From IMG/VR virus record IMGVR_UViG_3300045988_149090: a stretch of 53,311 bases of DNA, one strand, 5' to 3'. Every line of letters begins with the position of its first letter. Within the stretch, counting starts at the first letter, position 1. The notes under the pieces were generated by a model that was not told the origin of the DNA, ran no database searches, and was given only the letters and a program-made list of their open reading frames with translations. The translations under genes and the position numbers were made by a program. Source of the stretch: a virus. Below are positions 1 to 53,311 of this stretch, one piece after another.

Positions 1-82
1 CCCCCTTTAGGGGACAATAATAAAGAGAAATTTGGGGTACATTATTGTCCAGAACAATTATCCGACATGACTTTTCTTCCGG
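1..82. repeat. Left arm of terminal inverted repeat (pairs with 53230-53311)
   Basis: The reverse complement of 53230-53311 matches 1-82 at 81/82 positions. The single mismatch at nt 56 is a synonymous ATT/ATA Ile change in the shared reading frame. Similarity stops abruptly at nt 83. The outer limit is unknown because the window ends. Confidence 0.9.
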
Positions 83-390
83 AAATGACATTATATACTT
101 TACATTATGTTTGATATGATATACAGTTTGCTGAATATCAGTAGCCTTTTATGTTTATTTGTTTTTTTTCAAACAATAAAGTATCTTCCTCTTGTTTGCT
201 ATTTAATAGTTAATTGTTACTGGCTTATTATTATATTTGCCCTTTTAGCAGTACTGTATTGTGTGGTGTAAATGTTTAATAATTAATAAATTGAATACAA
301 AAAGTAAGAATGGAAATAATTTTGGGAATTGAGAACTTGTTACCATTTTGTTACTACTAATAATAAACTGTGTGTTTTTATTGAAAGAAT

Positions 391-1431
391 ATGAAAAAGC
401 TATTGAAAATAAAAGAGCCAATAAAGGTGAGAACAAAAAAGTTAGTAAATGGATGTCAATCCATATATCTAGACATATATATGAATGGAAGACGACAATA
501 CGAATTCTTAAAGTTGTATATTATCCCTGAACATAATCAAGCTGACAAAAAACGAAATGTGGAAACGCTAAATTTAGCAAATGCGATTAAGTCTCAGAGG
601 ATTGTGGAAATACAAAATCAAGCTTATGGATTTAATCGTAACAGATTGTCCGATGTGAAGCTGACTGACTATATGAAATTAGTAGCAGAACAAAGTGTAA
701 ACAATAAGGTGCGAAAAAGTACAATACATGCTGTCGTATGTCATTTGAAAAGATATACACCGAATGGAATATTGTTAAGGAAGGTAGACAAAGCCTATTT
801 ATTGGGGTTTATAGATTACTTGAAGAGAGCAAAACAAATACATAGTCAAAAAGAAAAAATGCTACATGTTAACACCCAACTTTATTATTTGAAGATGCTA
901 CGTTATTGTTTGAACTGTGCTGTCTATGAAGATTACATAACTGTTAACCCAATGGATAAAATAAAGAATGAGGATAAGCCAAAACGTTGTAGAACAGAAA
1001 GGGATTATCTCACAATAAAGGAATTAACCAGATTAGTTCATACTCCTTTTTATAATACCTTATTAAAAAAAGCATTTCTATTCAGCTGTTTTTGTGGATT
1101 GAGACATTGTGATATTATTGCATTGAGATGGGAAGATATACGTTATGATGAAAATGGAAATGCACTATTGAATATCATTCAGAAGAAAACGAAAGAAGCC
1201 ATATCGCTTCCACTCAGTTCAGAAGCTATAAAACATTTGCCAAACAGAGGAAATGCCCAAGAGACGGAAAAGGTATTTGCCGGATTGGTCTCATTAGGAC
1301 GGAGTAATGAAATTTTGCATAGATGGGTCGAGCAGGCTGGGATATCGAAACATGTAACCTTTCACGTTGCAAGACATTACCCAAATTCTTTCCCATTGAA
1401 AACAAACGACTTACAAAGAATTGTTTCTTGA
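391..1431 (+). pseudogene. Tyrosine recombinase (phage-integrase family), 5' portion; homology ends after box II (HVARH) at about nt 1377
   Basis: ATG at 391. Box I is present (CGLRHCDIIALRWEDI), followed by ...GISKHVTFHVARH. After that come 19 unrelated codons and a stop. The usual THATxxL...LGH...Y C-terminus is missing here and is found at 52005-52181. Confidence 0.75.
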
Positions 1432-1595
1432 TAGGTAACGATTTGGAAACGAGCGAAGTTCCGTATCTTACCTTGTTTTGCATTAAATCAAAAGAACGCT
1501 GGCTTCAAATGCAAAGGTAGCATTATTTTTTTGAAATACAAACTGTTATAGAGGATGAAATTCCTGTTTACGAAAGGATTCTTTCTTTTATTAGA

Positions 1596-2738
1596 CTAAA
1601 CCGTACAAGGGCACTTATATATGTTTAGCAGTTCATATATTGAAACCGATGGGCACAGAACTTGAATAGCACATTCCTTGCAACAACATCTTTTATTTCT
1701 TGCAAGATACCAAAGACAGCCCTGTGAACCAACCCACTTGTTTATAATGTAAGGTAAATCCATATCTCGCAAAGATTCTATTCTTTCATTTAAGCAACAA
1801 ACTTCACCATTAAAATTGATAGTTAAATGGCCGAAACAAGAGGGATTTATATACTCTTTTACATAACATTCTTTTAGTGTATGGCATGATTGAAGAATTT
1901 CATCTTTAGTCATAATCATTTGTGACTGTAAAGTAATTGTCTTTGTATCCAAAAAGACCGGGCAGAGAATTACATCCTTTCCTATCTTTGATATTTTGTC
2001 CACATCAGAAATCGATGTTATTATATATTTATATAGCAATCTTTCTTCGTTAAAGTTTAGCATATGAAACGGCGTGTGAGAGTCTACCAACAACTCAATT
2101 ACCAGCGAATCAAATTTACGTAGGATTTCTTTAATATAAGAAAAAGGATATGCTAAATAATGAATTCGGTAGATAACCTGTATATTTCGATCTCTTGCAT
2201 ATTCAAGAAACTTCTCTAACTTACCATATGATAATTCTCCTGACAATATGATTTTCTCCAAACAAAAAGAACGAAGTTGCAGGGAAATCTTTTCCATGTC
2301 AATTTCTACACAATTAGTATCTGGGTATTCTAATTGTTGGTATGAGAACGCATTAAGATATGTGAATATTGTATTGTTCAGTAATAATGTAAGGGATGTC
2401 AGCATCATATTTGTGTATGACGTGAGATTATAGCCTAAAGCCTTCTTTTCCTTCTGTAGTGAAGTTGCAATCCTTAATTTTCTTTCTGGGATGTATGGCA
2501 TAAACCCATCATACTGGATGTAATATCCAAAGTGGTTAGTAGCTATCTTTTGCAGCAAGAACTTGGTGTCGCAGTTCTCCTCGATATAGCCAAATCGGTT
2601 TAATCTGTCTATATTATGGTTAGCCAATACAACGTCTTTCAGATATACACCTTTGAACGTTATAGTGTCATATATGAGCAGTTCGGTTGATGTCGCTTTG
2701 ATATAGCAATGTGGGAAAAATATATACAGTCTATTCAT
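1596..2738 (-). CDS. Pseudo-rSAM / SPASM-like partner protein of the RiPP maturase (no CxxxCxxC motif, Cys-rich C-terminus)
   Basis: 380 aa. Its ATG overlaps the upstream stop (ATGA). No N-terminal radical-SAM Cys triad. The C-terminus is Cys-rich (CFGHL...VCCLNE...KRCCCKECAIQVLCP...KCPC). The arrangement resembles the GG-Bacteroidales pseudo-rSAM family as I recall it. Confidence 0.6.
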   Translation of the reverse strand: MNRLYIFFPHCYIKATSTELLIYDTITFKGVYLKDVVLANHNIDRLNRFGYIEENCDTKFLLQKIATNHFGYYIQYDGFMPYIPERKLRIATSLQKEKKALGYNLTSYTNMMLTSLTLLLNNTIFTYLNAFSYQQLEYPDTNCVEIDMEKISLQLRSFCLEKIILSGELSYGKLEKFLEYARDRNIQVIYRIHYLAYPFSYIKEILRKFDSLVIELLVDSHTPFHMLNFNEERLLYKYIITSISDVDKISKIGKDVILCPVFLDTKTITLQSQMIMTKDEILQSCHTLKECYVKEYINPSCFGHLTINFNGEVCCLNERIESLRDMDLPYIINKWVGSQGCLWYLARNKRCCCKECAIQVLCPSVSIYELLNIYKCPCTV

Positions 2739-4180
2739 TTTATAATAATATTATTTTCAAGAATTTCTATTATATTCGGGTGTGACTCTATGTATGATAC
2801 AGCCTCTGACAATAGCTTTGCAAACTTATTCTTAGATGTAAATTCTTCGCACTTACCATTGCTATAACAAAAAGAACATTTTGTACAACAAAACTGCATA
2901 TAGCATTTCTTGCACAAGAATGAAAATTCTGTAATCCTTTTCATGAATCTACTTGCAATATCATTGCAATCAATACGGACACATCCATTGTTGTCTATAA
3001 ATCCTAATGGTGAATCCCTGTTTACTTTCTCACATGGATGTATTTTCCCATCGTAACTTACGAACATTCGTTTTGAGAAAGGAATACAGGTACCTGTTGG
3101 CAGTATCTTGTTGTCTGTATTGTCATCTATGAGTAAGTCTGTCTCTTTATTAAATGAATTATTCAATAGTCTTGTACTAAATAGCAATATTCTATTAAAA
3201 AGAGGATTTTGAGTGATTAAGCCATGCTCCAACGCAATATCTTCAGGAATTTCAAAAGTTTTGAGCATAGACAATATCCTATCTCCATTTTTTGTGTCCT
3301 TTGTAGGAGTATGAACTGGGCTAAAATTTGGTGTCGTATTTAATTGAGATTTAAACCATTCAACTATATTCCTAACGTCACTTATATTGGAAAAAACGGC
3401 ATTATATCGAAATGTTGCAAACCATTTTGGGAACATACTTTCAACATCCATTAAGTTCTTCATTACGATGTCGAACGATGGGGAGCCATTAGGGGTTTTT
3501 CGATAAGAGTCATGTTCTTTGTTTCCGTCAAGGCTAATCAACATTTTGAAATTATGATGTGACAAAAAGTCGGCATGCTTTGATAAAAGCATTGCATTTG
3601 TCGTCATCGTAAAAAATAGTGAACGATTTCGAAATTCAACACATTTGGCATATTCAACAATTTGACGAATGACATCAAAGTTTACCAATGGCTCACCTCC
3701 GTAAAAGCTGATGGCAAAAGGCTCTTTAGGCGCATCCGATTTTGCTTCGCGCTGAAAAAGAACGACCAAATAGTCAATGATGCTTTTTGCTGTTTCAAAT
3801 TTCAGATTCCCCAAAACGCCCCTTCTGCTGTCAAATGTATCATAACCTTCGCTATAACAGCAATACTCGCATCTGAGGTTACAGAGTGTCGTCGTTTCGA
3901 ATATGATTTGGGACAAATTTATCAATGCATTTTGTATTGCATTGCCTGTTATGCATGCATCTAACGATGAGGTAAAATCATCGATGTAACCATATTCCCT
4001 TAATTGTCGAAGGGTCTCGGTCTCTTTATTTTTACCATTTGATATGATATCGTACAGGTCTTTGGGCAAAGGCAATATCGTCTTCGTTGATGGACTATAC
4101 AGATAATAATTGCTATGTTGGGTTTGAAAAGCAATGGACTCCATAAATTTAAAATAAGGAAAGCCAAAGTAATAAAACAA
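2735..4180 (-). CDS. Radical SAM peptide maturase with C-terminal SPASM domain
   Basis: CNLRCEYC (CxxxCxxC) near aa 100. GGEP motif present. The C-terminus is Cys-rich (CIPF...HPCEK...CKKCYMQFCCTKCSFCYSNGKC). The 4180 start is TTG; the first ATG is at 4144. Confidence 0.85.
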   Translation of the reverse strand: MFYYFGFPYFKFMESIAFQTQHSNYYLYSPSTKTILPLPKDLYDIISNGKNKETETLRQLREYGYIDDFTSSLDACITGNAIQNALINLSQIIFETTTLCNLRCEYCCYSEGYDTFDSRRGVLGNLKFETAKSIIDYLVVLFQREAKSDAPKEPFAISFYGGEPLVNFDVIRQIVEYAKCVEFRNRSLFFTMTTNAMLLSKHADFLSHHNFKMLISLDGNKEHDSYRKTPNGSPSFDIVMKNLMDVESMFPKWFATFRYNAVFSNISDVRNIVEWFKSQLNTTPNFSPVHTPTKDTKNGDRILSMLKTFEIPEDIALEHGLITQNPLFNRILLFSTRLLNNSFNKETDLLIDDNTDNKILPTGTCIPFSKRMFVSYDGKIHPCEKVNRDSPLGFIDNNGCVRIDCNDIASRFMKRITEFSFLCKKCYMQFCCTKCSFCYSNGKCEEFTSKNKFAKLLSEAVSYIESHPNIIEILENNIIIK

Positions 4181-4203
4181 TGGCTCTCCTTCAATTAGTG
4201 ATT

Positions 4204-4395
4204 TTAATCAATGTTCCAACTTCCTGCAGAGGCAACGTCATCACACATTGTGATTTCGCCTTCTCTAATGAAGCACTCACAAGGACAATAGCAATTACTA
4301 ATGCGAACAACATTGCCTTTTTGTCCTGCAATTCTCAATTTGTTTTTGAGTTGTTTGTTCTGTTCTTCTATAACAGACAATTTTAATACTCCCAT
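4204..4395 (-). CDS. RiPP-like precursor peptide (63 aa): helical leader plus Cys-rich core NCYCPCECFIREGEITMCDD
   Basis: ATG start, 23 nt upstream of the rSAM gene. The leader LKLSVIEEQNKQLKNKLRIAGQKG resembles GG-Bacteroidales-type leaders but lacks a GG. There are five Cys within 18 residues. Confidence 0.65.
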   Translation of the reverse strand: MGVLKLSVIEEQNKQLKNKLRIAGQKGNVVRISNCYCPCECFIREGEITMCDDVASAGSWNID

Positions 4396-4433
4396 AAGTT
4401 TTTCTTTTTAAACCCCATTTCATTGTTCACAAG

Positions 4434-6200
4434 TCAATCGCAGGGGTATTGCGCTTCGACCTGTTTGTGTATTGTTGTTAGATATTCATCCATAGGAATG
4501 TAAATATTCTTATCGCCATAAAGAGCATCGGTAAAAGTTTTTGGGAAAGCTGCGTATCCGATAAAGGCTCCTCTTAGCATGTACCCGTACTCTTTATTTT
4601 CCACACCTTTATTTTGAACATATCGTTCTATTTGGTCAAAGCCAAAAGGCTTAATAAAGAACGCCATCAAGGACTTCAGTACAACCAGATTATTTGGTAT
4701 GCTGAATGAAGAACATTGATTATGCTTGTATGCCCAAAACTCTCGAAGACTACGAAGTATTAGCTTGCCATTTTCTGTATTCGCATATTCTCGGCACTTG
4801 TATTTATTGGCTGATTCTACTATGAGGTTCAGAACCACATCGTCAGACAACACTCTTTTCTCACTTTTTAGAGCTTCATTAATAATAATGTCAAGAAACG
4901 CTTTCTCTTCAACAGAAGCGTTTACATCAATACTCACAGCAGAGTTTCTTAACGATAGGCATGAATAATTAACTTGACCATTATTTTTGCTTGATGTTTT
5001 TGCTTTACTGATAAGTTCATTCATAATTTCACTGACACGAACAAACAATGCTCCCAAAGTCGTGTCATACACAGAAGCTCCTGTATCAATGTTAGTTATC
5101 TGCTGTTTTATATTACATATGTCTTGTTTAATGGATTTGTACTCGTCATTATCTTCTTCGTATTTTTTGATTTTGTTTTTGAGATATTGTTTGCGTTCAT
5201 ATTCCAAAGTCCCCTTTTTGAAATATTCACGTGTTTTACCCATCTTGATGCCATTGTTGAGTTCTTGATTCTTTATAGAGTTTAATTCTTCAACCAAATC
5301 AGAAATGCCATCACGATATTCTATGTTGTAAAGCTTATTTTCTAATTCTTCTTTTTGAGCCATTAAATTATCTATTCTGTCAGTACCGCTTACTTGCTTG
5401 TTTTCTGAGAGTTCATCCGCACGCGCCTTAGACAATTTTATGATTTCTGAGAACAATTGAATAAGAATGTCGAACAAATTCGTTTTTGTCTTAATGATTC
5501 CGTTATATGCAGCCTTGGCTTTTTTTATAAGTGACATATATTCACCTGCATTCGAAACTGCACTTTCAGAAACCATTACTTGCGTATTTAATCCTGCAAA
5601 TGAATTTTTCAAATCTCGCAATTGGCATGAAAGTCGTTGCTCATGAGGGTCCTCTGCAAATACCATTGCATGGGTGTATGCAACAATCATTCCCTTTAAT
5701 CTATCATAAACATTGTCTTGGACAATGTATTCATGACGCTGAAAAGAAAAGGAATTCGCAATTCTATCAGTAACCAAAGGCTTCTTTGTTTTACCTGTAT
5801 TTATCACGAATTCAGATTTATATTTTTCTATACATTTTACCTCAAACAATATTTGTGATTCTGCAACAAAAGATTCAAGTAAATCATTCGAAGAGAACAG
5901 AAAAGCGACAGCACCCTTTTTGTAATAAATTGTTTTACTATATGTAAATAGGGTTTTACTTTTCTTGACTGGAGTTATATTTGATTTGTCCAAAATTTCC
6001 TCATTGACTTTTAATACGTAATCACCCTCTATTTCCTTTGTTGACAAGATAAGATAGTTAACTCTTTCATTTGTTCCATCTATATAACGGCTCAAATTGT
6101 TGCCATATCCTCTTACTTGATAGAAAGAGAATGGAGATATACTTTCTGAAACAAACGACTCCAGTAAGTTCCATGAATTTATGCCTATATAATAAAACAT
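4434..6200 (-). CDS. 588-aa protein of unknown function (duplicated N-terminal LLESFVxES motif, central K/E/N-rich coiled coil)
   Basis: ATG start, 4 nt after the helicase-like gene stop. I could find no Walker A or nuclease motif by eye. The long open frame in AT-rich DNA supports coding. Confidence 0.7.
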   Translation of the reverse strand: MFYYIGINSWNLLESFVSESISPFSFYQVRGYGNNLSRYIDGTNERVNYLILSTKEIEGDYVLKVNEEILDKSNITPVKKSKTLFTYSKTIYYKKGAVAFLFSSNDLLESFVAESQILFEVKCIEKYKSEFVINTGKTKKPLVTDRIANSFSFQRHEYIVQDNVYDRLKGMIVAYTHAMVFAEDPHEQRLSCQLRDLKNSFAGLNTQVMVSESAVSNAGEYMSLIKKAKAAYNGIIKTKTNLFDILIQLFSEIIKLSKARADELSENKQVSGTDRIDNLMAQKEELENKLYNIEYRDGISDLVEELNSIKNQELNNGIKMGKTREYFKKGTLEYERKQYLKNKIKKYEEDNDEYKSIKQDICNIKQQITNIDTGASVYDTTLGALFVRVSEIMNELISKAKTSSKNNGQVNYSCLSLRNSAVSIDVNASVEEKAFLDIIINEALKSEKRVLSDDVVLNLIVESANKYKCREYANTENGKLILRSLREFWAYKHNQCSSFSIPNNLVVLKSLMAFFIKPFGFDQIERYVQNKGVENKEYGYMLRGAFIGYAAFPKTFTDALYGDKNIYIPMDEYLTTIHKQVEAQYPCD

Positions 6201-6204
6201 ATTT

Positions 6205-7506
6205 CTAATTATTTTCTATTTCAACAACATATTCCTTCGATACATCTTTTAAAAATGATGTTTTCTTGCCCGTGTAGGAAATATAAAGATTACGTGAAGA
6301 ACGAGTACATGCTACATAGAAAGCATTCCTTTTACAGGTATTCGCCTCATTAGCAAATGGAACAAAAACATTGTCGAATTCAGACCCTTTTGCTGCATAG
6401 TATGTAAGAATACATGGTAGGTCGTTATTTGAAAAATCCAAAGTGTTGATTGTCCTAAAAGGAACGACATTTCCAGTTCGATAATGCACCTGAGTATTTA
6501 TCCCTCTTTGTGTTAAAAAATCGTTTACTTCACGCACGTCACTCTCATCAGGAACCAAGATTGCCACATCGTCCAAATCTTCCATTTTTATCCTATTTAA
6601 GATGCCTTCTAACTCTTTCTCTTTGGAAGAGTATTTCGTGATAATGGGTTTTGGATAATTAGGATAGTCGCTATTACCACCATCTTTCATGTTATTTGTC
6701 ATCAAATCCACCTTGACACTTTGAATTTGCTGAGCTACTTTTGCTATGGTCTTTGGCAAACGATAATTGTAATCTAACGAGAAACGTTTATATCCCAAAG
6801 TTTTAGCAATTTCATCAATGGAACTACCATTGAAGTTCATTTGTTGTACAGAATCCCCAAACAAGGAAAGGCTTTTTCCTCTATGGGCTATCATTCTTGA
6901 TTGATAGTCTGATACGTTGAAATCTTGCGCTTCATCGATGATGAGATAATCAATACGGTCTTCAGATTGTTTGTACATGGTTCCACTTGGAATCAGTTCA
7001 AATTTTTCTGTATTTGTCACGCTAAAGCCTGATGTGTATGGAATTTCTCTAAACCAACTAACTCTTCGTCCAAAGGCAGAGTAGAACTTATAATCAACCC
7101 AATCTGCGAAGTCAATTCCATAGGTAGTCTTGTCCTTTTCTGTGCGTTCAAATTTTCTGACGCTTAAATCATTTACCAAATAGAGCGTATTTCTATTTCC
7201 TTTCTCCCAATACACATCTCCAGTCAAATCGAAACCGCGGTGAGTCCAAGCCCATTCATATGCTATACGTTCCTTGTCTAAACCAAGTGCCTGCATACCA
7301 TATGCTATCATTCTCTTCAAGGCCACGGTAAAAATGACAATAGCATAACTTCCTTTATTTTTTGCCTGTAGAGCACGATGGATGGCGAGATTCGTTTTTC
7401 CACTACCAGCCGCTCCTTGTACTATTATATCATCGGTTATACTTTGTATGATGATTTTTCTTTGCGAATCATCCAAGTTTGAAATAAACCACTTTTCTAA
7501 TCTCAT
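6205..7506 (-). CDS. UvrD/Rep-like superfamily-1 helicase-type ATPase (compact, 433 aa)
   Basis: Motifs in SF1 order: GAAGSGKT (Walker A), LIIDEAQD (Walker B), YNYRLP, YYAAKGSEFD, FYVACTRSSRNL. Confidence 0.8.
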   Translation of the reverse strand: MRLEKWFISNLDDSQRKIIIQSITDDIIVQGAAGSGKTNLAIHRALQAKNKGSYAIVIFTVALKRMIAYGMQALGLDKERIAYEWAWTHRGFDLTGDVYWEKGNRNTLYLVNDLSVRKFERTEKDKTTYGIDFADWVDYKFYSAFGRRVSWFREIPYTSGFSVTNTEKFELIPSGTMYKQSEDRIDYLIIDEAQDFNVSDYQSRMIAHRGKSLSLFGDSVQQMNFNGSSIDEIAKTLGYKRFSLDYNYRLPKTIAKVAQQIQSVKVDLMTNNMKDGGNSDYPNYPKPIITKYSSKEKELEGILNRIKMEDLDDVAILVPDESDVREVNDFLTQRGINTQVHYRTGNVVPFRTINTLDFSNNDLPCILTYYAAKGSEFDNVFVPFANEANTCKRNAFYVACTRSSRNLYISYTGKKTSFLKDVSKEYVVEIENN

Positions 7507-7521
7507 AACTTAACCGATTTA

Positions 7522-7665
7522 TTAGAGAAAGGCTATAACGAGAATTGGACGGATCTTACTTTTTTCAGAAGAAGTTCCAATTCTATCATATCCACATCCA
7601 CTCAATGCGCATAACACAATGCTCATAACTATTCCTATGACAATATAAAGACTTTTCTTTTCCAT
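7522..7665 (-). CDS. Small putative lipoprotein (47 aa), first gene of the co-directional operon
   Basis: Not in the ORF track because it is under 60 aa. Translation: MEKKSLYIVIGIVMSIVLCALSGCGYDRIGTSSEKSKIRPILVIAFL, a signal-like hydrophobic stretch plus lipobox LSGC. It ends 15 nt before the helicase ATG. Confidence 0.4.
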   Translation of the reverse strand: MEKKSLYIVIGIVMSIVLCALSGCGYDRIGTSSEKSKIRPILVIAFL

Positions 7666-7695
7666 TTCTTATCTTTTACGTCGAATTTTTCTCCC

Positions 7696-7894
7696 TCTCT
7701 TCGTAAGAGAGGGATTAGGATAGAAACGTACTAAAAATCAACACTTCAAATCATGATAGTTATCTTTTTGCTAAACATTTCTATGTTCTTTCTATGTTTT
7801 TTGATATAAAAAGTTGATTTTCTCCCCGATACATTCTTTGATTTGCGCTATTTTGAGTATTTTTACACCGACAAATCCCTCTCTTACGAAGAGA
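7696..7894. promoter_or_regulatory. Perfect 21-bp inverted repeat pair (7696-7716 / 7874-7894) flanking a 157-bp spacer; candidate invertible or regulatory segment
   Basis: TCTCTTCGTAAGAGAGGGATT at 7696-7716 is the exact reverse complement of 7874-7894. It lies between the integrase stop (7919) and the lipoprotein-helicase operon start (7665). Confidence 0.45.
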
Positions 7895-7918
7895 TAACCT
7901 ATTTTGCTAAACACACTC

Positions 7919-9115
7919 CTACAGATTTTTCAATATCATCTCGTTCGCCTTGTCCACCAAAGAATTGTCCAATGATGCCAGATAGATTTGAGTAGTCGCC
8001 TCGGAATCATGTCCCATTCCCTCGCTGATGACGGAAAGCGGTACATTCTTGTTCTTTGCTATGCTTGCCCAAGAATGGCGGCTGACATACATAGTGAGAT
8101 TCACTTGCAATCCTACGATTATTGCTATTTCTTTTAGCTTGTTATTGACGAGGCGTAGTGCATTACGGTATTGTCGCTGCTCATTACCCACCTTATTGAT
8201 TATAGGCAGCAGGTAATCAGTCCCATTTCTCTGGTATTTGTCGACTATTTCCTGCATACACTTCTCCCACCTGATGAAAAGCTGTTGCCCCGTCTTGCGT
8301 CTGCGGTAAGAAAGGATTCCATTCTGTAAGTCTTTCTTTTTCAAGTAGGCCATGTCAATGAACGACATTCCACGTGTATAGAACGAGAAGAGGAACATAT
8401 CCCTTGCAAACTCCAATGACGGATTCATGGACAAGTCCAATTCCTTAATCTGTTTAATGGCTTTCAGTGGAATGGCACGTTTCACGGTCTTGTCTATGCC
8501 TGTATAGACGTGCCGGAATGGATTGCGCTGTTCCGTCAGTCCTTTCTCCACGGCACGATTATACACCGCACGGAGTATGCGCATATAGAATGAGACTGTG
8601 TTCATGGTTATATCCTGCGCCTTCATGTAAGCCTCATATTCCATCATAAGGTCGGAGCTAAATTCGTCCAACAGGACATCGCTATCTTCCCGGAAGCGCA
8701 TGAAGCTTTTTAGCGTGGCTGCATAATTCTCCGCTGTCCGTTCCTTGTTAAGCAGTTTCAGACGAACAATGACACCCTCCATGAACCGGAAGAAGGATTG
8801 TTCCCTTGTGGCCTCTTGATATTCCTCCACAATACTATCTGCCGTGAAAACATTACCGCTGTTTTCCATTCTTCCAATGATGGCTTTCAGCCTCTTCAAA
8901 TCCCATCCGATACGTTCCTTTATCGAACGTAGAATATCTGTTCTTCCATTGGCAGAAAGAATTACTACACCGCTTTTCTCATTCCATTCCTCCCTGAACA
9001 CCCGGTAATCCGTCTTTATCTGACGGATTACTCGGTTATGGATGACTTGGTAGTATATTGTCCCTTCCTTGTCTACGACAGTCGAAGGGCGGAACTTGAC
9101 CTTTACCGATGCCAT
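7919..9115 (-). CDS. Tyrosine integrase of the mobilizable element (Bacteroides IntDOT/NBU-like type)
   Basis: 398 aa, ATG start. N-terminal arm-binding-like MASVKVKFRPSTVVDKEGTIYYQV. C-terminal SRHSWAS...GMGHDSEATTQIYL supplies R-H...H...Y. It lies next to the Mob genes. Confidence 0.85.
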   Translation of the reverse strand: MASVKVKFRPSTVVDKEGTIYYQVIHNRVIRQIKTDYRVFREEWNEKSGVVILSANGRTDILRSIKERIGWDLKRLKAIIGRMENSGNVFTADSIVEEYQEATREQSFFRFMEGVIVRLKLLNKERTAENYAATLKSFMRFREDSDVLLDEFSSDLMMEYEAYMKAQDITMNTVSFYMRILRAVYNRAVEKGLTEQRNPFRHVYTGIDKTVKRAIPLKAIKQIKELDLSMNPSLEFARDMFLFSFYTRGMSFIDMAYLKKKDLQNGILSYRRRKTGQQLFIRWEKCMQEIVDKYQRNGTDYLLPIINKVGNEQRQYRNALRLVNNKLKEIAIIVGLQVNLTMYVSRHSWASIAKNKNVPLSVISEGMGHDSEATTQIYLASLDNSLVDKANEMILKNL

Positions 9116-9118
9116 ATA

Positions 9119-9787
9119 TCAATCGGATTTAAGGTTATCGGTCGGAGATTTGCCTTTCATGTCTTCCTGCATGATGCTGTCGGAAACGGCTTTCAAAGTC
9201 GTGCCATATCCGTCCGCCTGTTTCCGTACCCACTCGATGGCTTTTTCGTCCCGGCGGATGTCGAACACCTTGTTCAGCCAAAGCACATCATTGGCATTGC
9301 ATCCGCCCCAAGAGCGGATGGCACGGAACTTCAGCGCATCATCGGCATACTGACGTTTGGACTGCCATTGTCCGATGTTGCCCCACAGGGACAAGGCGCA
9401 TATCACACCAATCCCCACAACGAAAGAAAAGACCTTGCTCGATTTGATGTCGAAGCTGTGCCTGTGGATATGATCCTGTCGGGGCAGTTGCTGTTGAACA
9501 TCCGGTACTTTAAACTGTTCTTCAAGGAAACCGATTCGCTTCAAAATCACGGTTGTCACCTGTGCATAAGCCTCCCATTGCCTTGCCAACAAGTCCTTAA
9601 TCTCTTCGGATTGAGCCTTTGTCGTTTCCACAACAGCCTCCTTAATCGGGGATAAATCCGGCTTGTCATTCCCGATTTGAGGCTGTCGGTCTGCCACGTC
9701 GGGCAACTCTTCCAATTTACTTTTGATGCCATTTAAGGTTGTCTTGATTTCCTCAAAGAGGATGAATACATTGTTATTGTCTGCCAT
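9119..9787 (-). CDS. Mobilization accessory protein (MobC-like, one predicted TM helix) downstream of the relaxase
   Basis: ATG at 9787 (the track start at 9796 is TTG). It follows the relaxase stop by 2 nt. Hydrophobic segment VFSFVVGIGVICALSLW. The position is typical of the Bacteroides mobA-B-C order. Confidence 0.5.
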   Translation of the reverse strand: MADNNNVFILFEEIKTTLNGIKSKLEELPDVADRQPQIGNDKPDLSPIKEAVVETTKAQSEEIKDLLARQWEAYAQVTTVILKRIGFLEEQFKVPDVQQQLPRQDHIHRHSFDIKSSKVFSFVVGIGVICALSLWGNIGQWQSKRQYADDALKFRAIRSWGGCNANDVLWLNKVFDIRRDEKAIEWVRKQADGYGTTLKAVSDSIMQEDMKGKSPTDNLKSD

Positions 9788-9789
9788 AG

Positions 9790-10658
9790 TTACCAATTGA
9801 TTTTACGTTGTTTCTTCTTTTTCTTGTTTCTCAAATAAGGATCATAAGGCTGCTGTTCCTCCGGTTGATTGCTTGGAGAAAACAAGCCTAAAGACCCCTC
9901 GATAAGATTGCCGCCACTATCTGAAATTTGGCTTATCTCGTCCCGATTAGATTGCGGATGTGGTTGCGGTCGCATCTGTCGTTCCTCGTAATTGTTACGG
10001 CTCAATGCCGCGTCAATCTTGGAATAGCTGAAAGCGCGGTCTATCTTCGAGCCGTTGAAGCGGTAGCCGTTCATCGTAAAGACTATACCTTGAATTTCGT
10101 TTGTCTGCCCCTTGTACTTGAACTGCACATCGACGCCCTGCCGCTTCAACCGTTCAAGCAAGGTGTTCCAATCCTTGCATCTGCCGACTTCCGCCTTCAA
10201 GATTTGATATAGCCCGTACCTCGTCTTGTCCGGCTCTCGCAAACGCTCTACCTTCACTTGCTCCTTACCATTGGCAAAGTGAAGCCCGTATTTTTTGATA
10301 AGCTCCTTGCAGATGCGCTCGCTGCGAAAGCGGTCGTTCCTGTCGGAAATGGTCTTGCCGTTATTGTCGATACGGTTGAACGCTATATGCACGTGCGGAT
10401 GCTCCTTGTCGAAGTGCCGCCCGATGATGTATTGCGTATCCTTGATGCCCATCCGCTCCATATACTCACGGGCTATCCGAGCCATGACCGCATTGTTCAG
10501 CCGTGGCGCATCCTCCTTTGAGAAGCTCAATGCGATATGCCCGACAGCCTTTGTCACCCTCGGATTCATCCGTGCCTGACCGGTGAATCCCTGCGCTATC
10601 GTGTCGTTATTTTCCAAAAATAAGCCGTCCGCATCTATGATTTGAGTACCTTTTATAA
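9790..10658 (-). pseudogene. MobA/VirD2-type relaxase, N-terminally truncated by the prophage end
   Basis: Relaxase core present: GHIALSFS...HFDKEHPHVHIAFNRIDNNGKTISD. About 20 N-terminal codons and an ATG are missing. The upstream part of the open frame (to the TTG at 10815) runs through the phage end repeats. The boundary is uncertain by roughly 20 nt. Confidence 0.6.
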
Positions 10659-10730
10659 TCCGCAAAACGAAATGTTTCGACTTTTGGGAACGAAACGTTC
10701 TTTTTCCCAAAACGAAACGTTCTTTTTTTC
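10659..10730. repeat. Three tandem about 22-bp end repeats (ACGAAA cores at 10667, 10690, 10712): R1-R3-like transposase binding sites
   Basis: The three sites are tccgcaaaACGAAAtgtttcga / tgggaACGAAAcgttcttttt / cccaaaACGAAAcgttcttttt, spaced 23 and 22 bp. This mirrors the contiguous R-end sites of Mu. Confidence 0.7.
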
Positions 10731-10940
10731 GCACCCCTAAACACCCCCTACCCTGCCCTTTTCCGCTTAATTTCTCACTTCTAATTATTACTAAGAAATT
10801 TGGTAATCTCGCCAAAAATCGCTACATTTGTATAGTATAAATTGGTGTGTTGTGCACTCTCTCACACATACTAAAGCACTATCAAATTTCATTTTCTTAA
10901 AACATTTTCGACCGGCTTACGCCGGTATTTATAATAACAC

Positions 10941-10973
10941 GAACGGTGTTCGGAAACCATCCGAACACCGTTC
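10941..10973. terminator. Stem-loop terminator downstream of the tail-fibre gene
   Basis: GAACGGTGTTCGG-aaaccat-CCGAACACCGTTC, a 13-bp perfect stem followed by a T-rich tract on the plus strand. It lies 43 nt past the fibre stop codon on the minus strand. Confidence 0.6.
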
Positions 10974-11015
10974 TTTCGTTTTAGTCGCTTCGCTCCACGC
11001 TTTGGCGCTTTGCGC

Positions 11016-14000
11016 TTACAACACTTCGCGAATCGCTTTATACGCTTCCACGCTTTCCGCCCGAACGAGTTTGCCGCGGAAGGCCAGACGGGAGCCGACA
11101 TTCGCGCTCGAGTACGATGCATCGCTATTCGCATTCGCATTCGACACGCCGCCACTCGCATACGCATTGGAGGACCCGCGATAGACCACACGGAAGGCTG
11201 CGGTACTTATCCAATATTTATCGCAATAATATGTACTGGACGAGCCGTTAGCTGTTCCTACCGGTACGATATCCATGTATTTACCATGGGCAACACCTGT
11301 TATCCACTGGTCACTGATCGTTTTACCCTTCACCCAACGCACCGTGCCGTCCGGCATCCAAATACGCCATTTACCTTGGTTGCCACTATCGTTGGGTAAA
11401 TCAACACCGTCCATCATCTCGTACTTATGGCCGTAGATGTCCTCATAGCCCAGACAACTGATATTGTTTACCTGAGTCACGGTCGGAGAACCATACTCGT
11501 CCTGGCCACGATACCAAGCGTACTGGTGGATAGAACCGTCCACGATGGAATTCGTGATCTTGTCGTTTATTTTATACGCTTCGTCATAACCGATCGTATC
11601 CTGCATACCATAACCGGCTGTACCGCCCGTGATACGATTGCTCGTATGCTGACCGCCTCCGCACTGTTCCTGGCTGTCACGACGGCCATATCTTGCGTAA
11701 AACAAGTTCGCTATACGGGAGTGCATCAACGCGTCTATCTGTTGCATACCGCGCTGAACCGAGTAATAATGAAAGTCGATCCAGTTCATGCTGGCCGTCG
11801 TGGAATTACCTGTTATGCATGAACGCAACTTGCTACCTACCACGCTACTGCCTACTACCGCGCAAAGATGTTCCTCGTTGGCCACCCAATCGGGCTCCAT
11901 ATCCTCGATCTTGTCGGAGTTGGAAAGAACCACCTTGTCAAACTCGGCCGTGTTCAGGATCGAGAAGTGCAAGGCCGTGGCGTCCTCCGGAACATCCGAT
12001 ATCAAGTACATGCCGGCCTCGAACTTCAGACCGATCGTAGAGACCACGATGGTTTTGACCACGTTTCCGGAGCCGTCAACAAATAGACTGCCGACCAAAC
12101 CCGTACCGGGAACACTCGGAAAACGTACACGCTTATAGCCTTGTACATCCACCTTGCAGACTGAATAGGTCTTGTCCGTGCTATAAGAATCCTTCAACGT
12201 GGGTTTGCCACTCAAAAGTTTGCGCTCTGTAAGGAAACCGCCCTGCGTGTCTTTGATGTCGTCCAACGTCAGCACCGTCACATCCGGAACAGGAGGCATA
12301 TCGTCAGGGCCGTTGGAACTGTAACAGCTGTAATATTTCTCGTTCAGGTAGTCATTGACACCTTTCGACCAAAAGAACGGTTCGTACATCATCCAGTCGC
12401 CCTCGCTGCTGTCAAGTTTGGCTGCGCTGCCATCGTAGTATTTATTACTGCTGGTATCATCCAACGGACAATAGGTCATCTCGCCGTCCGGATTGTTCAC
12501 GTCAACCGTCTGGCCCGCCATCTCCACTTTACGGCTCGTGGGCTTTTTCGTCACCTTGGCAAGCACACGGTGGCGCTTCTTGAGGATCGCCGCCACGTGG
12601 GCATTCATGACGTAAGTATTGCCATACTTATAACCGGTCTCGTTGTCCGGGTTGGAAATGTTGGCATCGTCCGGAGCGCTTTCGTCCGACTCGATGATGC
12701 TGTAGGCCGGTTGTACGATCTCCAGTTCCGGATACCGCTCACGATACCGGTCGGCCTGTTCGTCATCCATGTACTTTGTCAGGCAGAGCCTGCCACGCAA
12801 TCCGGAATGACGGTTGTCTATCGCTCCGGTGGAGGTATAGGTACCATAATCGTAGTATTTCCCGAGCAGCCTGCCGTCATCCTCCATATCGATGTCAAGG
12901 ACAAAACGCTCCAGTTTACCGCTACCGTTCAACTTGGCCTGATGAAGACGTTCCAGCATGGCAAACCCGTCAATGCCCGGACAACCCATGAACCGGTAGC
13001 CTCGCACGTTACCGATGCCATCCAGTACCAATCCGCTCTCTGCCAACCTGGGAAGATATTCCAGAAACAGTTCCTCTATCGTTTCCGGCAAGCATAACTG
13101 CACAACAGGCGCACCGGTGGCAAGTTTCACGCGGGTAAGCCCCGTGCCTCTCACGTCCAGCTTCTTCAACCGTCCCTGCCAGCTCAAGTCCAAGGTCGTC
13201 ACGTTGCCGTTATCGCCATTCCGTGCCAGCAGGTTGTTGCGCATATTAAGCTCTTCCAGAAGAAGCATGCCGTTCGTCGAGGCCATGAATGAACCGTTAC
13301 GATAACCGCTGGCTTTCTCCACGCTCATGTCAAGTTTAACCAATGAGGTAAGCAAGCCGAAATTGAATCCGATGGCGAACGCGTCCTCATGCCACACCAG
13401 CTCCTTGACTTTGGCCGCGCCGATAATCTTCAGCGGGTCGTTCTCACCGAAGGCACGGGTCAGCTGCAGGGAGTGGAGCACGTCCGCATCCACCACGCCG
13501 CTGTCGGCCTGCACGCCGTTGCTGGTGGAAAGCTGCACACGGTACGGGATGGTCAGCCGGTACTGCATCGGCTTCAGTTTGTATGCCTTGTCCAGCGATG
13601 CCGTACTCTGGTAGAACTGGGCGCCCAGCGTAGAGACATAACCGTACTCCACCTGCTTCAGGTCATACCTGCGCTGGATGAAATAGTTACGGTGAGCTTT
13701 CAACGAACCCTTCAGACCGTAGATCTGCGGATACGTCTGTTTGGCACCGTCAGCCCCCACCGGCATCTCGTTCAGGAACGGATACACATACTTGAAGATG
13801 CCTGATTTGTTGTACAGCCGGCTGCACCACTTCTTCATCTGCTCGGTGTCGAAATGGTCAACGGCCTTCTGGATGCTGAAGGCACTCATGAAGCTGGTAC
13901 CGCCGTTCACACCCCTGGTCATCACTTCCTCCAGCAGATTGCCCATATTGCCCAGTATCAGGTTCCACAGCCAGCTGTTGTGTCCCTGCATCACATAGGC

Positions 14001-17000
14001 CCCGTCTCGCTTCGTCTGCCGGTTGTCGTCATACTTCCCGGTCAGGAACGACTTGTTGTCCGAACCCAGCTGGCAGTCACCGTCGTAATAGGTTATCCAC
14101 CACATCACGCCGTCCCATGTCCGCACCAGCATATTTTTCGCCAGCTGGTCCACACCCAGGTTGAACTGTACATACAGGTAGTAGGCGGCCAGGTTGGGAA
14201 GGTTGAAATACTTCCCGGCTTCCGCCTTGAAGGTCGGGCTCACCCATTTGGCCGTCGGGAACTTGTTGCCGTCATCCTCATAGTCCACCCCGTCAAAGGT
14301 GTGCGTCTCCTTGTTATAGGCCAGATTCTTGCCGGCAGGCGTTTCCTTCACGCATTTATAAAGGAAACTCATCATGCGGTCAAGCGCCTTGTACATCTTG
14401 TCGTACTTGTCACCGGTGCCCAGGTGTTCCTTGATGTTCGGTTCTTCTTCGGCATCACCTCCGCCATCGTTCCAGAACACGTCTTTCGGATGGTTGAACT
14501 CGAAACCGCCGTCAAAGTTGAAATCCATGAAGTCCGTATGGTCGGGCTCCGTGGACGGCAGCCAGCGGAACAGGCACAGGTCGTTCGAGTTGTTCAACGT
14601 CTCGATGCAGATGGGCAGGTATTCCTTCGGCCGGTCGCCGTTCGCCTGCAGGTAGTTCAGCGTATCACCGGTCCCCCACTGTTCTTCGCCGATGGTCTTG
14701 TCCTGGCCGAATATCGGGTAGCTGTCGCTCTTCTCGTTGTTCATGTTGTACTGGCCGTAGTAGGTCAGATCCTCATCCACACTCTTTGCCACAAACAGGT
14801 CACAGGGCAAGCCGTCAATGGCCGAGCGTATGTCTTCCTTGCACGTATCCGCATGGTCGGCGGCATACTGCTGGGCAGGGGTCAGGATACCCATTTCCTT
14901 CATGCCGTCATGGATGAACTTCGCGCCACCGGTGTTGGTGGTCATGGAGGAGTCCGAAAAGTCACACTTCGCACAGGCGAGTTTCGCCCCCACCGAGTTG
15001 TCCCGCAGTCGGAACAGGTTCTTCTTACCCTCCGTAGCTGTCGGGTTGCTCTGCTGCCCGTTACCGTCTATCTCGCCGTAGCTCATCCGTGCCGTGTAAC
15101 CGCTGGCTGTCTTCTGGAAGTAGAAGCGCAGGTTCTTGCGGGCATAGTTCACCGAACTGGTACCCTGGATACGCAGATAAATGTCACGGGCTATCCAGTC
15201 CAGCGCCCGGTTCTCACCGTTGTAGAATCTAACTTCCCGGCACAGCTTGTTGGCCTTCTTGTTGTTCAGCTGGGCCAGCGCATCCATCACGTTCAGCGTG
15301 TCGCTCTCGCTTGGCACCTCACTGCCCACGCTGCCCGTGCCTATCAGTACCAGGATCGAGTTCCGCCGCTTCTTCATCAGTCCCATCAGCTTCTCCATGC
15401 TCACCGTGTCCCCCTCGTTCAGCACGCGGTTGTCCTCATCCAGCGAACGCACGCCCGGTTCCCCGTCGGCATCCTCCAGATGGTTGCGGTCCACGATGTA
15501 GTTGTTAAGCACCTCGTCCGAAGTCAGCGCCTTGTTATAGATGCGCACGCTCTTCACGTTCAGGTCAGCCCCCTCCGATTTAAACTCCAGCTGGCTCCGG
15601 ATGTCGAAGTTCACCTTGTCCAGCCACTTCGAGGCGGCCGACTCCTCCCCGTTCACATAGAAGCCGATCAGCGTCCGCTGCTCGTTGGTCTCCACGTCCG
15701 GATAGAACACGTAAGTGATGCGGATATTCTTACCGGGTTCAAACTTCGTACCCACCGAGTCCTCATAGCGCAGGACCTGACCGGCATCCATCGCCTCCGT
15801 CACCACGCCGGTAAGGAACTTCGCCTCCTCCGGGGTCACCACCAGCCCGTAACGGTTGCCGTTTTGCAGGGTGCCCAGACAGGTGATCAGCTCCGCGTCG
15901 GTGTCAGTCACGTTGGCCGTGCTGTATTCTATCTCCAACGTCATGCCCACGTCGCGGATGGCAAAACCCTCGGGCTTGTCCGCCTCGTTGAACGGGCGAT
16001 AACCGCCGTCTGCCGTCAGTGTCATGCCCGCACCGCCGGCCAGCAGCAGGCGGTCCTTGTGCCAGCCGCTTCCTGCGCCGTATTCGTTCACGCTCCACAG
16101 CACATCACGGAATTCCATCCGTTTGTCCCCGCTCACCCAGCTTTCCGGGTTGTTTTCCGTGTTGCTTCGCCCGAAGGCATCGAACGTGCACACGGCATCC
16201 GGTGCCAGCGTGGCTTCAATGTCGGGGTGCGATGTGGTGTTCACCTGCACCTCAAGCACGGCATCACCGCACGACACACGGTAATCCAGCGGTTCCACGT
16301 TCACGTTCGTACGCCCGTAGCTGCCGGTCTCACCGCGCTGCAGCAGGTCTTCCTTCACCACACTGCCCCGGCTGGTCACTTTCACACGGGCCGTGTACGC
16401 ATCCCTGTCATAGCCGGCATACGTGAAGTTCCACGCCGTGAACTGCTCTGCCTCCAGTACGGGGTGCTTCCAGTCACGCTGGAACCCTGCCGCCCGGTGG
16501 TTGAACATCATGCCGGCATAGGCCGTCACACCTTCCCCGGCTTTCAGCAGGGTCAGGTAGTGTATCTCGCTCACCACGCCGGAGTTCTCGTGCAGCGCAT
16601 AGGCTTCCACCACGTTCATGCCCTCCCGCATTTCACTCAGCGCAACGGTGACGTTCTTCTGCTGGACACCGGAACCGGCTGACAGGCCAAGCGTATAGGG
16701 CTGCCCGCCGTTGATACGGTAGTAGATGTTCTTCTCGCCACTCGTTCCCTTAGCTGTAAATGGGATGTTCACGTCGTTCCGGTATCCCCCGTCAGCAAGT
16801 CCGTTCCCAACCGAATAAGTGGTACTTAGTTCCATAGCCACCATCGTCACCCTGGCGGTAGCGGTTTTCATCAGCGTACCGCCATCATAACCGGCCTGCG
16901 CCTCCACCTGCACGGTGTAGGTCGTGGCATCCTTCAGGTAAGGCGACGCGTCAAAAGTATAGCTCTGACCGGCCGTAACGCCGACAAACTCCGCATCCTG

Positions 17001-18163: not shown

Positions 18164-18164
18164 A

Positions 18165-50132: not shown

Positions 50133-50216
50133 TTTCTTTAAGTGCTAAAATTCGTTATTCTCGACCCTTTTCTGTATCTTTGGCCGCTCGTTAATTTCTT
50201 AACTCGATGCAAATAT

Positions 50217-50264: not shown

Positions 50265-50276
50265 CAAACTCATTTT

Positions 50277-51582: not shown

Positions 51583-51604
51583 CGTAAACGTTTCGTTTTG
51601 CGGA
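51583..51604. repeat. Outermost left-end repeat (L1-like), inverted copy of 10659-10680
   Basis: The reverse complement TCCGCAAAACGAAACGTTTACG compares with TCCGCAAAACGAAATGTTTCGA. Confidence 0.7.
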
Positions 51605-52004
51605 AGTTCCTTCTATCCTTCCCCGTAACCTATTGTATTATAAAGCGATGTGTTGTTTTATTCAATATATCGTTTTATACGCTTCGTTCTGTGCCCCGTA
51701 CACCTTGAATTTTTCCACTTTCATACGCTTATATTTTTTGTTGGCAAAATTAGCCTGTCTATAAGCGTTCCTTGATACGCAAAATACTGTGGATGAGCGC
51801 AAACGAAACGGTGAGGACTTCTTTTCATTGCCTACCGTTACCGACATCCGTTTCGGTAACTGCCCGGCTAACGGTTTGGTAACCGAATGACCTCAATATT
51901 CCGTTACCGTTTGCATTTTCCACATTTAGCAAAATACAGAAACATTGCTCATTTCAAACGACTTACGTTTAATCTTCACCTCTACGCTTTTCCTTGCAGT
52001 GCCT

Positions 52005-52181
52005 ATCACTTTCCACACAGCACGCCATACACATGCAACAATGATGCTGACGTTGGGAGTAGATTTATATACAGTCTCCAAGTTATTGGGACATACCAAT
52101 ATACAGACAACACAAATTTACGCAAAGCTTGTGGATGAAAGTAAAAAGAAGGCCGTCGCTTTGATTCCTAATATAACATAA
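52005..52181 (+). pseudogene. 3' fragment of a tyrosine recombinase gene (box II to stop)
   Basis: ITFHTARHTHATMMLTLGVDLYTVSKLLGHTNIQTTQIYAKL... contains HxxRH, the LGH His and the catalytic Tyr. No upstream recombinase sequence is adjacent. Confidence 0.75.
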
Positions 52182-52947
52182 GAGCTAGTTGAATTCGAAA
52201 TACAATTTGCCATTTTGTATTTTTAGTCATCACTTCGTGTTCCTAATTCACTTAAAAGATATTAGGAGCCTAATAAATGCTGCTAAAACTCATTATGTAA
52301 ACTGTAAGTGTCATTGATTTGTTGATCTTTGATTAAAAAATGATAGATATTTTTTATTCATGCAAATAATTGCATTCCTATTTTGAGTTATTGGCGTTAA
52401 AATGAAGAATACTGAACATCAGCTGCTTTGGCTCCCTAAAATGGATTTTAAGATGAATGGAGGGCTATTTCAAAGAAGTGGTTTATCATTTTATGAAAAA
52501 AACTGTTTTTCTACCGAGAATAAGTTAATATCTTGTTTGCTAGATATTGTATTTTTGTTTGCCGGATATTAACTTGCTACATACAAAAAACAAGTCCTTT
52601 AGAGAAAGTATTACATAAATATCTGTATAAATGTAGGGTATTTGTATTTTCATCCTTATTTTTTGCGGATACTTTTTCTATTTTTTCTTTTTCGCAAGAA
52701 AAGTAGATTAGTAGAAATTGCTAAAAAGTGACTATTTGACACAAAATATAACATTCTATATGACAATTGTACATCGTTAATTCAAAAGTTTTAAAATGGT
52801 AATAGACTTCATATAAACATTCAGGGGCTTTGTTAGAAGCTTTTGAAGAAAAAACGAGATTATTTCATCTTTTCATATAAAATTCTTTGGTATTATTAAA
52901 AATGTGTCTATTTTTGCACCATATTTTGTGTTATACGGACACGAAAA

Positions 52948-53311
52948 ATGGTTGAAAAAATGAGGTATAAAAACTCTAACATAAGAAAGTGCCTAAATAC
53001 TAAAACAATAGCACAGTGTGCAGCGTTCTTTTTATACTGTTTGCTCCCTTTAAAAGGAATTTGCCAAACGGGGGAAAGTACTGTAGATGCTTTAGTGAAA
53101 ATGGGATTTGAAAATGTTGGATGGACAGAAGATGGCAATGAACGTGTTTATGTTCTGCAAAACTCTGCATATCGTTTGCAGGGTGTAGGCATAGGTAAGG
53201 CGGTAGATATTATTCAAAAGATGGGTTTACCGGAAGAAAAGTCATGTCGGATAATAGTTCTGGACAATAATGTACCCCAAATTTCTCTTTATTATTGTCC
53301 CCTAAAGGGGG
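52948..53311 (+). CDS. 5' part of a secreted/outer-membrane-type protein gene running off the window (121 codons, no stop)
   Basis: ATG at 52948 (or 52960). Signal-like IAQCAAFFLYCLLPLKGICQ, then DALVKMGFENVGWTEDGNERVYVLQNSAYR... It is absent from the ORF track because it has no stop. The last 82 nt form the inverted-repeat arm. Confidence 0.6.
   Translation, partial: MVEKMRYKNSNIRKCLNTKTIAQCAAFFLYCLLPLKGICQTGESTVDALVKMGFENVGWTEDGNERVYVLQNSAYRLQGVGIGKAVDIIQKMGLPEEKSCRIIVLDNNVPQISLYYCPLKG
53230..53311. repeat. Right arm of terminal inverted repeat, inside the 52948-53311 partial CDS
   Basis: See 1-82. The arm encodes ...PEEKSCRIIVLDNNVPQISLYYCPLKG in the frame of the partial ORF that runs off the window. 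Confidence 0.9.

Follow-up and report, generated by a model that had tools for sequence, protein, structure and literature searches.

A probable programmed 5'-end-swapping inversion switch for paralogous surface operons in Bacteroides uniformis, probably jammed by an insertion into its recombinase gene

We report that the IMG/VR virus record IMGVR_UViG_3300045988_149090, a stretch of 53,311 nucleotides analysed at its full length (below referred to as the window), most probably represents the invertible segment of a programmed inversion switch of Bacteroides uniformis that has been jammed by an insertion into the gene of the switch's own tyrosine recombinase; we assign this reading a probability of roughly 0.85. 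The host locus was assigned to B. uniformis from the names on the cluster members. In the arrangement we propose, a native segment of approximately 2.6 kb carries the gene for a recombinase of 379 amino acids (aa) and, downstream of it and in the same orientation, a promoter, a start codon and approximately 90 codons of a YjbH-like barrel gene, with an inverted 17-nt core at each end of the segment. Two paralogous operons would face outward from this segment, each with a gene body followed by genes for a DUF3869-type lipoprotein, an OmpA-like protein and YjbH, and inversion at the cores would fuse the promoter and the 5' part to one body or the other. One operon would then be expressed, the other would be left without promoter, start codon and signal peptide, and the recombinase encoded by the segment itself would select between them.

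A repeat finder applied to the whole window gave 98% complementarity between positions 1-85 and 53227-53311. This is the repeat that an earlier note on the same DNA, made from the letters alone, had described as 1-82 against 53230-53311 with 81/82 matches and a synonymous Ile mismatch; the sole mismatch between the arms is at window position 56 (ATT versus ATA, both Ile) and the translation of either arm is PEEKSCRIIVLDNNVPQISLYYCPLKG. A repeat of 85 nt with a single mismatch in 53 kb is not due to chance. The earlier note had also taken the position of the repeat at the exact window ends as a sign that it might extend outward, and here the extension proved real, but the contact with both ends is a consequence of the assembly. 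Specifically, the terminal match without mismatch is 55 nt, stopping at position 56, and as this is the k-mer size of a SPAdes-type assembly the repeat touches the ends because the assembler ended the contig at these points. Contig L003, a SPAdes product of a different sample, starts exactly at window position 1, and in a megahit contig (L019, k=127) the repeat is at least 158 nt long and near-perfect, with an exact terminal match of 127 nt that ends at the same polymorphic site; in the 189 kb contig L090 it is followed by approximately 1 kb of paralogous gene body at 85% identity. The window is thus the type of contig that assemblers emit for unique DNA between two inverted-repeat copies, and its ends are uninformative on the true repeat length. 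L019 and the window have the alleles of this single-nucleotide polymorphism on opposite arms, which might have pointed to a crossover within the polymorphic site, an idea that was dropped because L090 has the same allele on both arms.

The flanks were found in related records. The 207 kb scaffold L001 is 99.99% identical to window positions 1-11431 and extends leftward; the open reading frame (ORF) suspected by the earlier note to run outward past position 1 does so, has a length of 328 aa in L001 and heads an operon with genes for a 302-aa lipoprotein, an OmpA-like protein and YjbH, beyond which lie RuvX, Def, a TPR protein, ThrRS and IF3. On the other side, L092 is 99.5-99.8% identical to the native parts of the window, with 99.7% identity to its segment, and its right arm leads into a B-type body, a DUF3869 lipoprotein gene and an OmpA-like gene. 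Hence, as was anticipated, both flanks continue as paralogous ORFs, with bodies seen in L001, L090, L091 and L092. An exact look-up of the 78-aa ORF for the recombinase fragment, aimed at the right flank of the same scaffold, returned no record.

The locus also occurs without the foreign DNA. L019 is an empty-site contig of 2805 bp in which positions 73-1437 correspond to window 1-1365 and 1431-2733 to window 52009-53311, with 99.5-99.8% identity, and L090 contains the whole locus with no insertion and with the recombinase intact at 379 aa. In L090 the minus strand codes first for YjbH, OmpA, a DUF3869 lipoprotein and a start-less body. The central 2599 nt hold the recombinase gene and the 5' part, both on the plus strand, which continues with body A and the genes for a 302-aa lipoprotein, OmpA and YjbH and then reaches RuvX, Def and ThrRS. 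The native segment, predicted earlier at about 2.7 kb, is accordingly 2.6-2.8 kb (2805 bp for L019, 2599 nt between the arms of L090). Over their whole length the two operons of L090 are paralogous and inverted, in stretches of 1057 nt (85%), 781 nt (94%), 686 nt (89%) and 100 nt (99%).

For the orientation of the segment, the L001 flank joined to the window, with the insertion removed, was aligned to L090. As far as the inner repeat edge, the flank aligned to the minus strand (98.7%), and from there the central segment aligned to the plus strand (86-90%). Relative to the same flank the segment is therefore inverted in L090, with the breakpoint at the inner edge of the repeat, and both orientations asked for in the earlier note exist, in different strains rather than in cells of one clone. 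Moreover, the protein database contains proteins in which the 5' part is joined to a body of type A (P0078), B (P0082) or C (P0080), together with start-less forms of A (P0073) and C (P0136) and a B-like one (P0075). As a separate observation, the switch region diverges far more than its surroundings between B. uniformis strains: the invertible segment of L090 and L091 compared with that of the window (composite 9813-12271) is 86-90% identical, and the flanks of the same strains are 97-99% identical.

Taken with the suggestion of the earlier note that inversion moves the promoter and 5' segment between paralogous bodies, the anatomy, the empty site and the two orientations are in support. The locus has in-frame coding repeats in paralogues, a recombinase between the arms and both orientations among strains with the breakpoint at the repeat, and one copy alone has a promoter (predicted from the consensus), a start and a signal peptide; the left copy is preceded by MSF in the window and by nothing comparable in L090. 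These are the hallmarks of 5'-end-swapping inversions. The label "shufflon-type" used earlier holds in so far as 5' ends are swapped, but B. uniformis has two sites and one segment, i.e. a two-state switch, and not the several segments of a classical shufflon of the R64 Rci type; a third body was seen only in L032. Likewise, the bodies between which the swap was thought to occur are paralogous, but the swapped piece heads a whole four-gene operon. Nor is the locus an invertible promoter of the ON/OFF kind, since the segment includes approximately 90 codons and the recombinase gene and the repeats are coding.

When species-representative genomes were scanned, 72 loci turned up in Bacteroides and its relatives, of which 7 were too short to classify. 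An inverted second body is present in 18, located 2.0-2.7 kb upstream of the 5' part, and in 18/18 of these duplicated loci a recombinase gene lies between the arms, co-oriented with the 5' part; in the remaining 47, whose upstream sequence was long enough, the operon is single and there is no recombinase. In every duplicated locus the arm homology starts at the same codon. Among 16 arm pairs the arm-to-arm identity is 26% immediately inward of the core, 98.9% in the core and 75-82% beyond it, and third codon positions past the core are 50-60% identical between arms. The core lies within the codons for P-E-E-K-S-C (residues 91-96) and its sequence occurs twice only in the window. It exists in nine species-specific versions, e.g. 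CCGGAAGAAAAGTCATG, CCGGATAAAAAGCCATG, CCACAGAATAAGCCATG and CCCGAAAATAAGCCATG, and is the same on both arms of a genome in 14/16 pairs; identity between arms combined with variation by species is the concerted pattern that a recombination site requires. We infer that the core holds the crossover point, and a search by eye for dyad symmetry around it gave nothing convincing.

Two side observations concern the same site. Bacteroides stercorirosoris DSM 26884 (L032) has three bodies that all carry the 17-nt core, the expressed one and two others near -8855 and -3302 when counted from the 5' part, i.e. a true multi-cassette switch. In a 1990-bp ENA contig (P0121) the reading frame passes directly after the core into the N-terminus of a reverse transcriptase of group II intron type (...AMQ followed by CRIIVLDNN); either an intron has inserted at the recombination site or the assembly is chimeric.

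The tyrosine recombinase gene placed just inside the left arm by the earlier note is confirmed by three Pfam domains in ORF 391-1431, and so is its interruption. The present ORF (346 aa) reads into the inserted DNA, ending in ...TFH followed by VARHYPNSFPLKTNDLQRIVS and a stop, after 22 foreign codons, and the last 54 codons stand alone at the far side of the insertion, in contrast to the intact 379 aa in L019 and L090. The truncated product retains an H-x-x-R-H box, supplied by the end of the inserted element, and loses its last 54 residues including the catalytic tyrosine. Because this tyrosine is lost through the 50.6-kb insertion (1366-52016), the switch, now 53 kb, is most likely frozen; judged from the sequence, it would most likely be locked in the state that points the 5' part at the right-hand (B-type) operon and keeps body A silent. 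Members of 829-870 aa in the 90% cluster of the recombinase, considered as possible fusions, are valyl-tRNA synthetases and a clustering artefact.

How far could other explanations account for these data? That the terminal repeat is an assembly fold-back, or consists of the terminal repeats of the inserted mobile DNA, might be suggested by its ending exactly at both contig ends with an exact match of the usual k-mer length. We see virtually no chance of this, since the same arms flank the empty-site segment in L019, L090, L091 and L092, the arms belong to the coding regions of two distinct genes, each of which independent assemblies follow into a flank of its own (the fold-back feared in the earlier note is thereby refuted), and the inserted DNA has other ends, at 1366-1371 and 52016. 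A weightier alternative is that no programmed switch exists, the orientations being rare fixed strain differences that arose by RecA-dependent recombination of the inverted operons, with the recombinase incidental. The operons indeed share 85-99% inverted homology over several kilobases, the cassette exchange in L091 goes beyond what the core sites alone can produce, and there are mosaic bodies such as P0079. Yet homologous recombination of this kind would hardly place the orientation breakpoint exactly at the inner edge of the homology, at the same codon in approximately 15 species, nor keep the 17-nt core identical between arms while the next codons drift to 50-60% at third positions; and the recombinase is found in 18/18 duplicated and 0/47 single-operon loci, which together make this alternative improbable to our minds.

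Assuming a programmed switch, it might still be active in this strain if another tyrosine recombinase inverts the 53-kb segment in trans. Single invertases of B. fragilis, Tsr0667 and Tsr19, are reported to act on several distant sites (PMC4747536), and the contig broke at the repeat on both sides, as can happen when both junctions are present in the sample. A repeat longer than k alone predicts the same break, however, at the left junction L001 and L002 show a single orientation, all copies of the truncated 346-aa recombinase that are read through the left arm show the same join, and the core sequence was found only twice in the window; we therefore regard continued activity as unlikely, if less so than the previous alternative. 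Several points weigh against the jammed programmed switch that we prefer. The right-hand body of this exact strain is known by proxy, from L092, and the comparison of orientations is between strains, with central segments that share 86-90% identity. Two of the 16 arm pairs have one or two core mismatches, and protein constraint on L-P-x-x-K-x-C could explain part of the core conservation. By analogy with the B. fragilis invertases acting on distant sites (PMC4747536), a paralogous recombinase could keep the switch active in trans. Finally, L091 (ERZ28596374 scaffold_30, another B. uniformis strain) has the B-type and not the A-type cassette on the RuvX side, an order that would need a larger inversion between the distal OmpA/YjbH repeats besides the core inversion, so that the locus is also remodelled in other ways, probably by homologous recombination of its long operon repeats.

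The ORF at 52948-53229, which according to the earlier note enters the right arm with a start codon and a signal peptide, indeed has a basic and then hydrophobic N-terminus. AlphaFold2 modelling of the 415-aa protein (mean pLDDT 79.7) gave a signal-like helix at residues 8-28, a small alpha/beta domain at 38-112 and antiparallel strands at approximately 153-351. Residues 91-96, which the core encodes, fall in the loop that follows helix 73-88, and the swapped unit thus begins inside the N-terminal domain. Foldseek against PDB returned generic outer-membrane porin-type barrels with a TM of about 0.3, a result that supports a beta-barrel fold and nothing more specific; Pfam gave weak YjbH matches only, and none of the barrel protein, the lipoproteins and the short YjbH protein has an NCBIfam model. 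The lipoproteins of the operon have lipobox-like N-termini and His/Gly-rich C-termini. The claim that the left copy is preceded by MSF alone is correct for the window, with an ATG at 91-89 (-), but the MSF is not conserved and is missing in L090, and the silent copy thus simply has no start. The candidate promoter was identified at the level of the consensus, which has 6 matches in the window against 1.2 expected. A first search with the 121-aa 5' part found only proteins of at most 203 aa, and the full-length chimera as query found many of 415 aa. Frameshifts in lysine-rich A-tracts were considered as a further level of phase variation and dropped, as the full-length ORF is intact in 66/74 loci; the intact ORFs and the many 415-aa proteins imply that the short hits are mostly contig-end or database effects.

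Table 1. Features of the 53,311-nt window discussed in the text
Feature	Position	Strand	Remarks
Left arm of inverted repeat	1-85	-	5' end of silent promoterless YjbH-like gene copy (body A), cut by contig end
Left 17-nt core	66-82	-	CCGGAAGAAAAGTCATG; putative crossover site
Switch recombinase, codons 1-325	391-1365	+	Pfam Arm-DNA-bind_5, Phage_int_SAM_5, Phage_integrase; aligned to 379-aa proteins of L019 and L090
Integrative mobilizable element (~15 kb), right-hand 9.3 kb	1366-10652		Begins with coupling sequence GTTGC (1366-1370), then end AAGACATTACCC; genes: 380-aa ORF, radical SAM, 63-aa and 588-aa ORFs, GajB-like UvrD helicase, 222-aa ORF
Element integrase	7919-9115	-	
Mu-type transposable prophage, 41 kb	10653-51701		Hankyphage-related (Bacteroides phage p00); carries diversity-generating retroelement
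Retroelement target gene	11016-17537	-	2173 aa
Retroelement variable repeat	11084-11194		3' end of 2173-aa target gene
Retroelement template repeat	36978-37088		111 nt, 92% complementary to variable repeat
Retroelement reverse transcriptase	37302-38603		
Mobilizable element, left-hand 315 nt	51702-52016		Ends ...CACTTTCCAC; 99.7-100% to coordinates 2545-2859 of L095 and L100
Switch recombinase, orphaned last 54 codons	52017-52181	+	TARHTHAT...LGHTNIQTTQIYA...; LGH and catalytic Y of QIYA
Candidate promoter	52886-52916	+	Bacteroides consensus match (TTTG ... TAnnTTTG); points at right arm
Mobile 5' part	52948-53229	+	Start 52948 or 52960, signal-like peptide, first half of N-terminal domain
Right arm of inverted repeat	53227-53311	+	Joins 5' part to putatively expressed body outside window
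Right 17-nt core	53230-53246	+	CCGGAAGAAAAGTCATG; putative crossover site

Inversions that swap 5' ends are a known mechanism in Bacteroides, and the target family and the locus are the addition made here. The nearest relative is the B. thetaiotaomicron PUL shufflon BT1032-BT1053 with the recombinase BT1041, in which three SusC-like TonB-dependent transporter genes recombine (Porter et al. 2020, bioRxiv 10.1101/521070). As in that shufflon, a recombinase encoded at the locus would shift the sole full-length 5' end, along with the signals for its expression, from one operon-heading outer-membrane gene to a paralogue; recombination is placed inside the 5' coding region, and the other copies are 5'-truncated and silent. 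The present switch differs in its YjbH-like target heading a lipoprotein/OmpA/YjbH operon, in having two sites (three in one species) and in that its recombinase rides on the invertible segment. For B. fragilis, inversions of SusC/SusD genes by Tsr0667 in three clusters and nine other regions are described (Nakayama-Imaohji et al. 2009, as cited in PMC4747536); going by that citation, tyrosine-recombinase inversions exchange outer-membrane protein genes there as well, but from a master invertase, whereas here each duplicated locus has its own recombinase between the arms. B. thetaiotaomicron further has eight S-layer lipoprotein/OmpA loci of the BT1927 type, where a 301-bp promoter flips between 17-nt repeats and acts as an ON/OFF switch (bioRxiv 10.1101/521070). 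As in that type, the recombinase gene adjoins a phase-variable outer-membrane lipoprotein/OmpA-like operon and the likely role is surface variation against phage and host defences, but the piece flipped here carries coding sequence and would choose between two operons.

More generally, gene-altering programmed inversions across bacteria are enriched in families that include SusC/RagA, HsdS, phage tail and PilV (Milman et al. 2023, PMC9881135), and the present locus shares with this class the coding inverted repeats and the neighbouring recombinase that give alternative alleles; the word YjbH does not occur in the main text of that paper, in which DUF3869 was not searched for. Clusters of a DUF3869 lipoprotein, OmpA and DUF940 (YjbH) have been described in Bacteroides as lipobox proteins with His-rich C-termini and unknown function (PMC4387736). 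The operons studied here match them in content, and the words recombinase and integrase are absent from the main text of that report. In the literature searched we found no paper describing this target family or locus as invertible.

The DNA inserted in the recombinase gene consists of an integrative mobilizable element with a prophage inside it. Intact copies of the element (L093-L100) are approximately 15.2 kb and carry two tandem integrases, HTH proteins, DUF3408, MobC, a relaxase, a third integrase, the GajB-like helicase, the 588-aa protein, the radical SAM protein and the 380-aa protein; the end sequences are AAGACATTACCC and CACTTTCCA(C/T). In the window the relaxase has lost its 5' end. 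The element is very common, being listed in 13451 blocks of the collection. Its cargo at 1596-7506 (-), i.e. the 380-aa ORF, the radical SAM gene (a weak viperin-like match), the 63-aa and 588-aa ORFs and the GajB-like UvrD helicase gene, may be an anti-phage defence module; no known system was matched in full.

The prophage encodes a Mu-type transposase, a transposition ATPase and portal, head, tape-measure and tail-fibre proteins, and is approximately 75% identical at the nucleotide level to Bacteroides phage p00 (Hankyphage) around the reverse transcriptase. Its right end was set by eight genomes whose flanks differ from there on; as a side observation, a nearly identical right-hand 12 kb is present in ten complete or large Bacteroides genome records, all with different flanks. 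All 9 mismatches between the template and variable repeats are adenines in the copy next to the reverse transcriptase gene. With this enzyme, a repeat pair that differs only at template adenines and a variable repeat at the 3' end of the target gene, the prophage has the full set of features of a diversity-generating retroelement. The prophage replaces 5.6 kb of the element, comprising the tandem integrases, MobC and the start of the relaxase. Reconstruction of the relaxase across the phage junction restored no start codon, which fits the 5.6-kb loss, and a 9.6-kb element with a simple phage insertion and a 5-bp duplication was rejected because intact copies are approximately 15.2 kb. The pentanucleotide ACCTT flanks the phage (10648-10652 and 51702-51706) and also occurs at 2855-2859 and 8464-8468 of the intact L093 element; it stems either from target duplication plus microhomology deletion or from a transposition-linked adjacent deletion.

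To characterize the insertion sites, 20 copies of the element end were examined: the window, eight looked-up contexts and eleven metagenome contigs (L093-L111 and the window), the metagenome contigs being read at one junction only. In 18/20 the end directly follows an open frame ...G-I-x-K-x-(I/V/L)-(T/S)-(F/Y/T/W)-H (S-Y in one), which is the start of the H-x-x-R box of a tyrosine recombinase. Many different genes, at least a dozen, are hit in this way, including invertases next to fimbrial loci and next to the surface-operon switch described here. Where both junctions were read, the R-H codons resume at the far junction in the window and in 7 of the 8 looked-up copies, and the joined ends of the element would read T-F-H-x-x-R-H. 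The 5-nt junction sequences vary, as in CTnDOT-type integration with its variable coupling sequences; the window has GTTGC and ACAGC, the latter being the original host sequence. That the element is a specialist for the H-x-x-R catalytic-box codons of tyrosine recombinase genes generally is a tentative proposal, to which we give slightly less than even odds, and a limited literature search found no description of such targeting. Two other copies are near this switch type, and that of L094 splits the switch's own recombinase gene. In L097 (ERZ28645537 scaffold_1, flanks at approximately 2383-2556 and 17739-18335) one flank has a C-terminal fragment of this recombinase (95%) and the other the N-terminus of an unrelated recombinase (26% identical) beside a MutS2-like gene, which suggests a chromosomal rearrangement between two element copies.

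If the element does prefer such codons, a very common gut element would systematically disable invertases and rival integrases, freezing phase-variable surface structures and seeding rearrangements between recombinase genes, and the pattern of sites suggests a link between the spread of mobile elements and the loss of phase variation. For the switch itself, our data suggest that the operons for YjbH-like proteins, DUF3869 lipoproteins and OmpA, which are widespread and uncharacterised, represent a new target family for surface inversions in gut Bacteroides, with a precise and testable recombination core common to approximately 18 species. The window would then be a natural "locked" mutant, and strains with and without the insertion could reveal the roles of these operons, e.g. 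in phage or immune evasion.

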